A stretch of 64,000 bases of DNA from an uncultured Bacilli bacterium (GTDB taxonomy: Bacteria > Bacillota_I > Bacilli_A > RF39 > UBA660): positions 5,358-69,357 of the forward strand of contig CALVYA010000006.1 of the NCBI GenBank assembly GCA_944371905.1, given 5' to 3'. Of the stretch, positions 44,975 through 51,560 are shown one piece after another; the stretch's first letter is position 1; every line of letters begins with the position of its first letter. The translations under genes and the position numbers were made by a program. The notes under the pieces are model-generated. The model was not told where the DNA came from. It was given only the letters and a program-made list of their open reading frames with translations, and did not search any database.

Positions 44975-48011
<3,037 letters not shown>

Positions 48012-48080
48012 TTAAATCCCCTAAAAATGCCCATATAACCACCTTTACCTATAACCATAGTCCTCTATACATACATTTAT

Positions 48081-48089
48081 ATTATAGCA
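48081..48089 (-). promoter_or_regulatory. Extended -10 sigmaA promoter for recF-gyrB-gyrA
   Basis: Minus strand TGCTATAAT downstream of the comK terminator. Confidence 0.55.
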
Positions 48090-48104
48090 CATATTTTTTA
48101 AATA

Positions 48105-48132
48105 AAAAAGAAAAAAGAGGTCACCCTCTTTT
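48105..48132 (-). terminator. Intrinsic terminator after the comK-like gene
   Basis: AAAAGAGG-GTGA-CCTCTTTT followed by a U-tract. Confidence 0.7.
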
Positions 48133-48577
48133 ATTTTTTCGATATTCTTTTCGTTATCATAGCATCTAACATACCCGCTCTAAGTAATTGATTTTCAAAA
48201 GATAATTTAGAAATATCAAATTCTTTTTCTATGCCATTTTGAAATATCACTTTAGTATTATTACCTATTTTTTCTCTTTTTTTTACATAATTATGATTTA
48301 TCCAACAGCAATCTTCACTAGTATAAGATTTTGTCGGAAAAAAGATTATTTTTTCTGATTCTTCAATAAGAAGTGGTAATTTATAACTAAAATTTAATAT
48401 CTTCTGAGCAGCTTTAATTCTACCATCATATGTACTACCATAATACTCACAATTTTCTTCCATAATGTTAAAAGTAGAAGAAGGTATTAAATATTCTTTT
48501 GTTAATTCTATTACTTTCGTATTTTCTGAATCGATTGGTATTAATGCTATAGTTTCATCATTAATCTCATATGTCAT
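48131..48577 (-). CDS. comK: ComK-family competence transcription factor
   Basis: YEINDETIALIP, CEYYGSTYDGR, KLPLLI, IFFPTKS, CCWIN match the ComK family pattern. Confidence 0.82.
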   Translation of the reverse strand: MTYEINDETIALIPIDSENTKVIELTKEYLIPSSTFNIMEENCEYYGSTYDGRIKAAQKILNFSYKLPLLIEESEKIIFFPTKSYTSEDCCWINHNYVKKREKIGNNTKVIFQNGIEKEFDISKLSFENQLLRAGMLDAMITKRISKK

Positions 48578-48642
48578 AAAGTATCCCCCCATTTCTAATT
48601 TTTTGTAATTTAAATTACGGGGATTATTATAATTATATTTAT

Positions 48643-48669
48643 TGTCGAATTATGTCGAAATATGACGAA
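48643..48669. promoter_or_regulatory. Three tandem Spo0A boxes in the comK promoter region
   Basis: TGTCGAA (48643), TGTCGAA (48653), TGACGAA (48663); consensus TGNCGAA. Confidence 0.8.
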
Positions 48670-48681
48670 TTTTGCATTTTT

Positions 48682-49803
48682 TTAATAAGTTCTTATAGGT
48701 AATACTAGTTGTTCAAGTGTATCATCTTCTTTTCCACGAATAATAATTGGTTTTATTTCTCCAAATAATGATATCTTAGCATAACTAGTTTCAAAAGATT
48801 TTAATGCATCCATCATATATTTAGCACTAAATGAAATCTTGATTTCTTGATCATTATCTTTTTCAATTTTCATTTTTTCTTCTACTCTACCTATTTCAGC
48901 AGAGGAAGATTTTACTAATAATGTATCTCCATTAACTTCAAAAGTAACAACATTTTTTTCCTTATCAGAAGTTAAAATACTAGCTCTATCTATAACATTA
49001 TATAATTCGTCCAAATTAGCTGTAAAACTTAAAATAGGATCTGTTGGCCATAAATTTGATGTATTTGGATAATTTCCATTAATTAATCGTGATTGAAATA
49101 ATAGATTATTATATTTAAACAATATTTTATTATTAAATATATGCATTTCTATATTATCCTCACCAAAATCTAATATTTTATTAAATTCTATTAAATTTTT
49201 ACTAGGTACTACAAAATTATAATTCTCTTCGGCTATTTTATCTAAATTTATTGTTTTTTTAGCCAAACGATAAGAATCTGTAGCATTACATTCCAATAAA
49301 TCCCCTACTATTTTAAAATTAATTCCTGTTAAAACAGGTCTTGATTCATCTGCTGATGTGGCAAATGAAGTTTGATTAATAAGACTGTGGAAAATTTTAT
49401 TATTAATATATATTATTTTTTTACTTTCTTCTAATGAAATATTAGGATATTCATTTTTGTTAATACCATTTAAATTAAATTCACTATTTTCAGTGTATAT
49501 AATTATTTTTAATTCATCTATTACTTCAATATTAATAAATTCGTCAGGTAACTTTCTTACAATATCTAATATGTACTTACCTTGAATAATAATACTACCT
49601 TCTTTTTCTATAGTCATATCTTCGTTTGTTGGTATAAATGTTTGAATAGTAATATCATTATCTGAAGCTGTTAATGTTAATCCGTTACTATTTAATTCGA
49701 ATTTAATTCCAGATAAAATGGGAATTAAGTTTTTAGTAGATATAGCTTTTGATACTTTGTTTAAACTTTCTAACAATATTTCTTTTTTAATTTTTAATTT
49801 CAT
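48682..49803 (-). CDS. dnaN: DNA polymerase III beta clamp
   Basis: PILSGI, SRPVLTG, ATDSYRLA, LVLPIR. Confidence 0.97.
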   Translation of the reverse strand: MKLKIKKEILLESLNKVSKAISTKNLIPILSGIKFELNSNGLTLTASDNDITIQTFIPTNEDMTIEKEGSIIIQGKYILDIVRKLPDEFINIEVIDELKIIIYTENSEFNLNGINKNEYPNISLEESKKIIYINNKIFHSLINQTSFATSADESRPVLTGINFKIVGDLLECNATDSYRLAKKTINLDKIAEENYNFVVPSKNLIEFNKILDFGEDNIEMHIFNNKILFKYNNLLFQSRLINGNYPNTSNLWPTDPILSFTANLDELYNVIDRASILTSDKEKNVVTFEVNGDTLLVKSSSAEIGRVEEKMKIEKDNDQEIKISFSAKYMMDALKSFETSYAKISLFGEIKPIIIRGKEDDTLEQLVLPIRTY

Positions 49804-49928
49804 ATTTATTCCTTCTTTCTTTATTATTATTTTTATTATTAGAGTGGAAATTGTTGAAAACTTATTTTTTCTCTAATATACAAATGATTTTATAAATTTA
49901 TCCTGTGGAAAAATAGTTGATAAGTGAA
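49804..49928. other. oriC, dnaA-dnaN part (probable unwinding region)
   Basis: DnaA-box-like TGTTGAAAA (49852), TGTGGAAAA (49904) and AGTTGATAA (49915), next to (TTA)n DnaA-trio-like repeats at about 49821-49841. Confidence 0.75.
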
Positions 49929-51308
49929 TTATTTAATCTCTTTTTCTAGTATTTCTATAGTTTTAGACAAATCTTTATTTATTGAAATTTCTCTTTCAAT
50001 TTTTTCACAGGAATGCATTACTGTTGAGTGATCTTTTCCTCCAAATTCAATTCCAATTTTAGGAAAAGATTCGTCTGTTAATTTTCTACATAAGTACATA
50101 GCAATTTGTCGTGGAAATGATATATTAGAATTTCTTTTTTTAGATTTTAAATCATCAATAGATATTTTAAAATATTCTGCTACTACCTTTTGTATTTTGT
50201 TGATATCATTTTTTTCACTTATGCCTTTATTAATATAGTCTTTTAAAGCTTCCATTGCAAGATTTAAATCAATTTCTGCTCCCATAATGGTCGAATATGC
50301 AACTAATCTTGTAACAGAACCTTCCAGCATCCTAATATCACTACCTAAATTGGAAGCCATATATTCAATAACTTGCTCTGGAATATATTTATTAATAGCT
50401 TCCCCAGCAATTCTTTTTTTCAAAATAGCAACTCTAAGTTCAAAATCTGGGGGATATATATCAACAGGTAATCCCCAACAAAATCTCGTTCTTAAGCGAT
50501 CTTCTAGTATTTTTAAATCATCGGGAGAACGATCAGAAGAAATTATTATTTGTTTGTTATCACCATACAAATTATTAAATGTGTGAAAAAATTCTTTTTG
50601 TGTTTCTGTTGCACCACCTAAATATTGAATGTCGTCAATGATGAGAACATCAATATTTCTATACTTTTGCTTAAAGAAGTCAACATAACTAAAATTCGTT
50701 CCAGATTCATCTTTCTTATTAATTCCAATAAAATCAGATACAAATTGTTCACTAGTTACATATAAAACTTTTTTATCAGAGTTTTTAGTAATATAATTTC
50801 CTATTGCATGCATTAAATGAGTTTTACCCAGTCCACTGTTTCCATAAATAAATAACGGATTATACATTTTTCCAGGATTTTCCGCAACTGCAAGAGCAGC
50901 TGCATGAGCAAATTTATTACTATTTCCTACAATAAAATTATCAAAAGTATATTTTGAATTTAAGTTTGTATTTAAATATAAATGTTCATTATTATATAAA
51001 CTGTTACTGGTATTTTCCACATGATTGTGAATATTATTTTCTTCTTGAAATTCATCTTCAATGTCTTCTTTTAATAATAATTCAATTTCTATATTTTTTC
51101 CCGTTAATTCTAAAAATGAGTTTTGTAACATTTCCTTATAATTTAATAGGATATGATTTTTATGAATAGCATAAGGAACAATAATTCTAGCAGTTCCATT
51201 TTTTATGTCATACAATTCTGTTTCTTCAAACCAAGTTTGGAAGGACAATGAATTTATTTCTGATTTAATTTTTTCTAAAATGTTAGACCATAAAACAGAT
51301 GTATTCAT
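49929..51308 (-). CDS. dnaA: Chromosomal replication initiator
   Basis: NPLFIYGNSGLGKTHL, IDDIQ, RQIAMYL, GGKDHSTV. Confidence 0.98.
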   Translation of the reverse strand: MNTSVLWSNILEKIKSEINSLSFQTWFEETELYDIKNGTARIIVPYAIHKNHILLNYKEMLQNSFLELTGKNIEIELLLKEDIEDEFQEENNIHNHVENTSNSLYNNEHLYLNTNLNSKYTFDNFIVGNSNKFAHAAALAVAENPGKMYNPLFIYGNSGLGKTHLMHAIGNYITKNSDKKVLYVTSEQFVSDFIGINKKDESGTNFSYVDFFKQKYRNIDVLIIDDIQYLGGATETQKEFFHTFNNLYGDNKQIIISSDRSPDDLKILEDRLRTRFCWGLPVDIYPPDFELRVAILKKRIAGEAINKYIPEQVIEYMASNLGSDIRMLEGSVTRLVAYSTIMGAEIDLNLAMEALKDYINKGISEKNDINKIQKVVAEYFKISIDDLKSKKRNSNISFPRQIAMYLCRKLTDESFPKIGIEFGGKDHSTVMHSCEKIEREISINKDLSKTIEILEKEIK

Positions 51309-51339
51309 CCTTATCACTCCCCCCATTAATACGAATAAT

Positions 51340-51560
51340 TAATACAAATTCATTTTAACTTATCCTGTTGAAAAAATAAAGTAAAAACCGTAAAAAAAAG
51401 ATATCAACAAGTAATCAACAGAGTTTTCAACAAAAAATGTGCATAAATAATAAGAAAAAAATTACTTTTTCACATTTTCCACAAATTTTTATTCATAACT
51501 ATGAATAATGTTATCCACAAGTATGTTAATTTTGTTGATAACTATTTTTAAAATGAATTG
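51340..51560. other. oriC, rpmH-dnaA DnaA-box cluster
   Basis: Perfect TTATCCACA (51511) plus TTTTCAACA, TGTGCATAA, TTTTCCACA and TGTTGATAA; gene orientation switches here. Confidence 0.85.

Follow-up and report, generated by a model that had tools for sequence, protein, structure and literature searches.

Phased candidate Spo0A boxes at the predicted comK promoter within the replication-origin gene cluster of uncultured gut Bacilli

How is a competence regulator controlled when its gene lies directly behind dnaN, among the genes of the replication origin? The question is raised by a stretch of DNA of 64,000 nucleotides from an uncultured Bacilli bacterium (assembly GCA_944371905.1, contig CALVYA010000006.1), which was analysed over its whole length and is referred to here as the window. 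The window has a G+C content of ∼26% and displays the gene order dnaA-dnaN-comK-recF-gyrB-gyrA, with dnaN and comK both encoded on the minus strand. These two genes are separated by a spacer of 89 bp (48593–48681) that contains three short direct repeats, in which the original prediction recognized boxes for Spo0A (0A boxes). The downstream gene had been named comK, and the product is indeed a full-length member of the ComK family: it matches PF06338 with 143.7 bits (gathering score 22.3) and an E value of 5e-42, residues 7–150 aligning to profile positions 3–151 of 152. Sixty ComK homologues were found, almost all of them 148 aa long, which places the comK start at the ATG at 48577, 3′ of the GGGGGGA ribosome-binding site. 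The sole informative source annotation among these homologues reads ‘competence protein ComK [Bacilli bacterium]’. Both in the window (46881–51326) and in its relatives, the competence regulator gene sits inside the replication-origin gene cluster, at the dnaN-recF position where Bacillus carries yaaA, a small S4-like gene.

The relatives were collected by scanning species-representative genomes with an alignment of ComK sequences, which recovered 43 loci. Two of these belong to Fictibacillus, show 28–29% identity and lie in a different context, outside the syntenic set. The other 41 are MAGs of uncultured gut Bacilli (L001–L040 and L043) and were used together with the window as a set of 42 sequences. 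The genes dnaA and dnaN are found directly upstream of comK in 41 of the 41 related loci; downstream, recF is present in 38 loci and gyrB in 37, and where either gene is lacking the contig comes to an end. DnaA identity to the window is as low as 46% across these loci, which makes the set a deep one. Among the relatives are Candidatus Faecenecus and Candidatus Coprovivens, which are members of the GTDB order RF39 (PMC8035907). The window resembles L020 and, on this similarity, probably belongs to RF39 as well. In one locus a spore-coat open reading frame of the Coat_F family (PF07875, E 1.9e-11; L011:3465–3782, minus strand) is accommodated between comK and recF, and gaps similar to that of L011 are seen at this position in L017 and L025.

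At its 3′ end comK looks monocistronic, as the gene is followed by a terminator-like hairpin with a T run (Table 1) and recF possesses an extended -10 of its own, TGTGCTATAAT, at 48082–48092, just past this terminator. The terminator scan found two terminator-like sites against 0.1 expected in shuffles, and none in 48593–48681, between dnaN and comK. A GGGGG tract upstream of the comK start codon is shared by nearly all related loci. When known RNA families were searched, the promoter and leader gave no match, and a sub-threshold hit to sraA was returned at 48105–48176 (27.1 bits; gathering score 56).

Table 1. Coordinates of genes, predicted promoter elements and candidate 0A boxes in the window
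Feature	Position	Strand	Basis or remark
dnaN	48682..49803	minus	stop codon 48682-48684, 12 bp from the distal box
Distal 0A box TTCGTCA (TGACGAA on plus)	48663..48669	minus	∼-50 to -44 from the predicted start site
Middle 0A box TTCGACA (TGTCGAA on plus)	48653..48659	minus	∼-40 to -34
Proximal 0A box TTCGACA (TGTCGAA on plus)	48643..48649	minus	∼-30 to -24, 11 bp from the -10
Second TATAAT	48632..48637	minus	window-specific, unconserved; closest relative L001 has GTATAA there
Conserved -10 hexamer TATAAT of the predicted comK promoter	48626..48631	minus	aligns with TATNNT in relatives
CCCC and palindrome GTAATTTAAATTAC, possible leader hairpin	48605..48622	minus	predicted 5′ end of the comK mRNA
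Ribosome-binding site GGGGGGA of comK	48584..48590	minus	window sequence
comK, 148 aa, start MTYEIN	48131..48577 (including stop codon)	minus	PF06338
Terminator-like hairpin and T run, directly 3′ of comK	48113..48132	minus	terminator scan

The three repeats match the 0A consensus TGNCGAA at all seven positions and two of them are perfect copies of TGTCGAA; with spacers of 3 bp each (tta and ata), the box period is exactly 10 bp. Re-reading of the sequence confirmed every coordinate given originally, and with them the three boxes, their 10-bp period, the two TATAAT hexamers and the TCGACA hexamer at 21 bp. This hexamer belongs to the middle box (48658–48653, minus strand) and is separated from the TATAAT downstream of it by the 21 bp of 48652–48632. 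The window as a whole is not enriched in 0A boxes: counting both strands, TGNCGAA occurs 15 times where 10.2 ± 3.3 occurrences would be expected, and the three boxes form the only cluster. Neither a same-strand pair at 10 bp nor a triple appeared in any of 1000 dinucleotide-preserving shuffles, and the analytic expectation is ∼1e-7 triples per window. The array is also the only place in the whole window in which TGTCG cores are paired at 9–11 or 20–22 bp; a second tandem 0A array, as a possible further Spo0A target, was sought across the window and none was found. The repeat by itself is unremarkable, since Tandem Repeats Finder describes it as period 10, 2.9 copies and score 44, one among 92 low-scoring rows. 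What is remarkable is the 0A-box unit and its conservation in relatives.

This conservation is evident in several ways. Within 150 nt upstream of comK, the 42 sequences contain TTCGACA 43 times in the sense orientation and once in the antisense orientation, a density of 6.8 per kb that exceeds ∼120-fold the background of 0.057 per kb per strand (29 occurrences on both strands in the remaining 252.6 kb). An exact TTCGNCA is present upstream of comK in 29 of 41 syntenic loci. The shorter core CGACA occurs in sense orientation at least once in 34 of the 42 sequences and two or three times in 18, and two cores are separated by 10 bp in 20 pairs, by 20 bp in 15 and by 25 bp in one, so that 35 of 36 pairs fall at 10 or 20 bp. 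Two cores were encountered in only 6 of 3338 control windows. As the loci are related, such counts are not independent, and the proper control is a comparison of box and spacer columns within one alignment.

The alignment was anchored on the proximal box and the -10 by means of the pattern ACA-N11-TA with a score of at least 10, and it comprises 26 sequences, L025 having been re-anchored by hand; sixteen loci (L011, L014, L017, L020–L022, L024, L031–L037, L039 and L040) did not show this pattern and were left out. The distal box, which was not used for anchoring, has C in 21 of 26 rows, G in 24, A in 24, C in 26 and A in 26. The middle box is the weakest in the relatives (C 16/26, G 24/26, A 22/26, C 15/26, A 22/26); its two C columns are the weaker ones among the three bases that Spo0A would contact, and it frequently reads AACGACA, which departs from TGNCGAA at positions 6–7. 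The inter-box spacer columns hold ∼0 bits. The strongest conserved boxes are the distal and the proximal ones, and across the lineage the invariant part of the box is TGTCG, with positions 6–7 being variable. Three of the 42 sequences (L021, L022 and L024) have no box upstream of comK; these loci carry GGACGAAA in the opposite orientation, ∼110–130 nt upstream of the gene.

Many short repeats of like score populate this AT-rich window, as the 92 rows indicate, and a functionless chance tandem duplication might be envisaged for this reason. Against this stand the conservation of the boxes across 41 species-level genomes as divergent as described above, with nearly uninformative sequence between them, and the strictness of both orientation and spacing, which leave a chance origin with next to no credibility. 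As related gut bacteria preserve the layout of the array, it very likely represents a real switch of a kind known in Bacillus subtilis; that it is a real cis-regulatory element is almost certain.

The position of the boxes with respect to the -10 is equally constrained. A box followed by N11 and TAnnnT (anchor score at least 10) is found in 26 of the 42 sequences; two further loci (L011 and L020) keep the 11-bp distance with degenerate boxes, and in another two (L014 and L032) box-like hexamers are discernible by eye 11 bp from a -10. Eight loci (L031, L033–L037, L039 and L040) contain one single TTCGACA at comK, and in each of them exactly 21 bp separate it from an extended -10 of the form TGnTAnnnT. 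Boxes thus reside at 11, 21 or 31 bp from the -10, with no intermediate positions, and this rule is observed in 36 of 42 sequences. The 21-bp relation between box and -10 to which attention had originally been drawn is real: it is conserved and constitutes the sole arrangement in the eight single-box relatives. As for the two TATAAT hexamers that had been reported side by side, both are present in the window and only the downstream one (48631–48626) is kept in relatives.

From this hexamer the start of comK transcription is predicted near 48619. A TG at -15/-14 accompanies 14 of the 26 anchored promoters and a perfect TATAAT occurs in six, the -10 being either perfect or TG-extended in 19 rows. 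At the canonical 17-bp spacing, TTGACA is matched at 0–3 of six positions in all 26 anchored rows, and none of them has a usable -35. The best reading of the dnaN-comK spacer is that of a sigma-A-type comK promoter with a good -10 and no usable -35. The boxes would occupy positions ∼-50 to -24 of this promoter, and the earlier claim that they overlap the comK core promoter is supported.

Which protein recognizes the boxes? The Spo0A box has been defined as the 7-bp core TGTCGAA, of which Spo0A contacts G2, C4 and G5; single changes at any of these bases lower the affinity ∼10-fold, and Clostridioides difficile Spo0A reads the same motif as its B. subtilis counterpart (PMC3485338). Spo0A~P works as a dimer, and each of its footprinted sites in phages phi29 and Nf is a pair of boxes with a 3-bp gap, 25–30 bp of DNA being protected (PMC2731898). 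The CGACA core conserved in the relatives is TGTCG on the other strand, that is, box positions 1–5 with G2, C4 and G5 included. The array combines the TGNCGAA core, contact bases that are kept in orthologous sites and the tandem 3-bp spacing, all of which are features of 0A sites, and judged by its motif it is probably bound by Spo0A. The box-less loci, the departures of the middle box from consensus and the lack of another tandem array in the window count against this proposal.

Spore formation is predicted for the order RF39, and sporulation is described as strictly dependent on spo0A (PMC10868615). A search of the 64 window ORFs with Spo0A models detected no spo0A in the 64-kb window. Sporulation genes are represented there: yabP, yabQ and yabG score above curated cut-offs, and spoIIR together with spoIIQ-like, spoVT-like and gerQ-like genes below them. 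Many sporulation genes (among them spoIIQ-like, spoIIR, gerQ-like, yabP, yabQ, spoVG, yabG and spoVT-like) are distributed over 1350–30312, where the cell-wall genes murA, PBP1A and mreB and a gene for RNA polymerase delta are also present; the window has the appearance of a small genome.

A different regulator might bind the repeats, be it another response regulator, a CtsR-like repressor or ComK itself, and the likeness to 0A boxes would then be coincidental. PhoB/PhoP-type activation typically relies on direct repeats of 10–11 bp that end ∼10 bp before the -10, CtsR operators are likewise heptad repeats with 3-bp spacers, and the assignment to Spo0A comes solely from motif identity. Moreover, ComK regulates its own gene in B. 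subtilis (PMC3297582). This alternative is unlikely, however, as all three boxes agree with TGNCGAA throughout, the conserved part is exactly the TGTCG that Spo0A contacts and 24 of 26 rows retain G5. The PhoP hexamer TT(A/T/C)ACA is not matched by TCGACA. The CtsR operator consensus, RGTCAAA-NAN-RGTCAAA, was rejected because it does not fit the array even when three mismatches are tolerated. Autoregulation was likewise rejected, since 48593–48681 contains no ComK box of the form AAAA-N5-TTTT, the nearest ones lying at 48340–48352 and 49857–49869.

With Spo0A as the probable binder, the sign of its effect has to be considered. Given Spo0A, activation is slightly favoured as the net outcome. 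The complete proposal, a comK promoter controlled by Spo0A~P in which the regulator takes over the role of the -35 and activates transcription, is advanced tentatively and falls a little short of an even chance. Spo0A~P would bind the three boxes head to tail on one face of the helix, from ∼-50 to -24, and would substitute for the -35 contact in the manner of response regulators whose repeats end ∼10 bp before the -10. In such a scheme comK would be switched on when growth comes to an end and Spo0A~P increases and, with two of its three boxes being perfect consensus, could respond at low Spo0A~P, ahead of sporulation genes. Once all boxes are occupied, the one within the promoter spacer (-30 to -24) included, the promoter may be turned off again, and the occupied array may in addition block read-through from dnaN. 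The fixed positions at 11, 21 and 31 bp, the lack of a -35 and, in eight species, a single box at 21 bp point to a protein that cooperates with RNA polymerase from a fixed face of the helix. Response regulators are known to act with RNA polymerase in this way where repeats stand in for the -35, and the Spo0A-activated promoters spoIIG and spoIIE, with their long spacers, are a further example. The favoured course of events would be that low Spo0A~P activates the promoter and that complete occupancy of the boxes possibly closes it afterwards.

The location of the conserved proximal box inside the promoter spacer nevertheless speaks against activation, and a -10 that is perfect or TG-extended could yield substantial activity without an activator. 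Known sites that resemble the array in position are negative: site R1 of B. subtilis comK, which overlaps the -35, represses (PMC3297582), as do the tandem boxes of phage Nf A2c, which lie over the upstream part of the core promoter (PMC2731898), and Spo0A sites that overlap a promoter are stated, in the manner of a review, to be negative (PMC4168254). Spo0A~P might do nothing else than repress: by covering -50 to -24 it would exclude RNA polymerase and block read-through from dnaN, and the promoter, firing by virtue of its strong -10, would be silenced in sporulation-committed cells, which would thus be barred from competence. A Spo0A~P roadblock has been described at abrB and at the Pv promoter of spo0A (PMC12090719), and such a device would be useful in the window, where dnaN and comK are not separated by a terminator. 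Yet mere overlap suffices for a repressor, and this leaves the fixity of the 11/21/31-bp positions without a reason; a single box at 21 bp, as in eight loci, would cover the -10 poorly, and the fact that 0 of 26 rows have a usable -35 suggests the need for a helper protein. Pure repression is considered a realistic but rather improbable option, and activation by Spo0A~P is the reading that is pursued here.

Several Spo0A-dependent and response-regulator promoters invite comparison with an activated comK promoter of this design. At abrB tandem 0A boxes are separated by 3 bp, and at spoIIG and spoIIE, which are Spo0A-activated sigma-A promoters, a -35-like hexamer stands ∼21–22 bp from the -10 and is overlapped by a 0A box. 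The window promoter, with TCGACA-N21-TATAAT overlapped by a 0A box, is similar in this respect. The analogy drawn in the original prediction consequently holds for the relation between hexamer and -10 and breaks down at the proximal box: a conserved extra box within the spacer (N11) has no known counterpart at spoIIG and spoIIE. The boxes here are also consensus rather than weak. Unlike at these two promoters with their upstream sites, the next TGNCGAA upstream of comK is met only within dnaN (49540–49546), and no second upstream site is possible because only 12 bp separate the distal box from the coding sequence of dnaN. PhoB/PhoP-type promoters, in which direct repeats replace the -35 and the last repeat ends ∼10 bp before the -10, share with the array the direct repeats on one face and the missing -35; the difference is that the repeat is a 0A box and not a pho box.

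The closest functional parallel is comK of B. subtilis itself, to whose promoter Spo0A~P binds directly, as judged by gel shift, first activating and then repressing; the level of Spo0A~P sets when competence can start, and the same pair of regulator and target is proposed here (PMC3297582). The B. subtilis promoter likewise displays 0A-box-like sequences (A1–A3, R1 and R2), with R1 placed over the -35. These five sites are dispersed and imperfect, with 0–2 mismatches, in contrast to three phased boxes of which two are perfect; furthermore, B. subtilis has a recognizable -35, ComK boxes and antagonism with Rok (PMC3297582), whereas the promoter in the window has neither a -35 nor a ComK box. 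The placement of comK directly behind dnaN is a further departure from B. subtilis. In terms of architecture, the sites A2c and A2b-A3 of phages phi29 and Nf are similar in being head-to-tail boxes with a 10-bp period and 3-bp gaps, and dissimilar in consisting of two boxes that repress, as opposed to three boxes at fixed distances from a -10 (PMC2731898). As direct control of comK by Spo0A is established in B. subtilis, a precedent that the original prediction did not mention, no new category is introduced and the novelty is lowered: the principle is known (PMC3297582), and what is new is the architecture and the host. A literature search for comK and RF39 retrieved no description of this arrangement.

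The residence of the array within the origin gene cluster raises the additional question of an involvement in replication. The dnaA-dnaN spacer (49804–49928) contains the DnaA box TTTTCCACA at 49904–49912 and, around ∼49815–49840, consecutive TAA triplets together with A/T-rich sequence. The TAA run lies just before the dnaN ribosome-binding site and fits an unwinding element located ∼1.15 kb from the array; we take it to resemble a DnaA-trio or unwinding element. The GC skew changes sign near 51–52 kb, at the cluster of DnaA boxes upstream of dnaA. The possibility that the three repeats are DnaA boxes was rejected: a search for TTATCCACA with at most one mismatch gave no match in 48593–48681 and clusters at 51438–51541.

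It could be argued that the array acts mainly on replication, with DnaA or Spo0A modulating oriC, or on an antisense promoter directed into dnaN. The proximity of the DnaA box and TAA run would be compatible with the former, as would the statement that 0A boxes at an origin allow Spo0A~P to block initiation (PMC2731898), and a weak promoter-like site on the plus strand at 48603–48630 with the latter. Such roles are nevertheless very improbable. The boxes differ from the DnaA box by more than one mismatch, they keep fixed distances to the comK -10, the TG extension exists only in the direction of comK and the promoter-like sites in the region number six against 9.8 expected from shuffles. Moreover, the origin box of the relatives lies inside the dnaA-dnaN spacer and is additional to the comK boxes. 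This TTCGACA, found beside DnaA boxes in six closely related loci (L033:1636, L034:1177, L035:1638, L037:1667, L039:1678 and L040:1677), represents a candidate 0A box at the origin in the arrangement expected for origin control. The TGNCGAA scan of the dnaA-dnaN spacer of the window revealed no such box. The effect on initiation that had been suggested for the array is unsupported, as the array is ∼1.15 kb away and the origin box of the relatives is a separate one in the dnaA-dnaN spacer.

If Spo0A~P controls the promoter, the decision between competence and sporulation would be far simpler than in B. subtilis, a single regulator and three phased sites replacing the -35, with no ComK box and with the gene embedded among those of the origin. 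The array offers a clean test case for Spo0A action inside a core promoter, since the boxes at 11, 21 and 31 bp are individually movable. It also yields, for an order of gut Bacilli that has not been cultured, a first prediction about regulation; the capacity of this order for sporulation and transformation is known from gene content alone. A more ambitious proposal, and a decidedly doubtful one, is that comK is built into the origin operon, where it would be transcribed by read-through from dnaA-dnaN as well as from its own promoter without a -35, with the 27-bp Spo0A~P array, 12 bp behind dnaN, serving both as a roadblock to this read-through and as an activator site. Were this true, one oriC module would tie together replication initiation, gene dosage, competence and sporulation, and natural transformability would be predicted for never-cultured gut bacteria with reduced genomes. 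In Streptococcus pneumoniae the master competence control, comCDE, is also adjacent to the origin and belongs to a different regulator family (PMC8394987).

The predicted comK leader displays features of its own. The palindrome GTAATTTAAATTAC begins ∼7 nt past the -10 and is identical in L001, L002, L003 and L007; different inverted repeats are found at the corresponding position in other loci, and single-sequence folds give a hairpin after the -10 in most of them. RNAalifold, applied to a MAFFT alignment of 16 leaders, returned 0 pairs and no consensus structure. In the clade of the window, the CCCC of the leader could pair with the GGGGGG of the ribosome-binding site (48585–48590). Two relatives, L023 and L026, contain in the comK leader an inverted pair of DnaA-box-like sequences, ∼60–90 nt upstream of the start codon, which in L023 reads TTTTCCACC ... 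TGTGGATAA. The pair is situated downstream of perfect TTCGACA boxes, of which there are three in L023 and two in L026.
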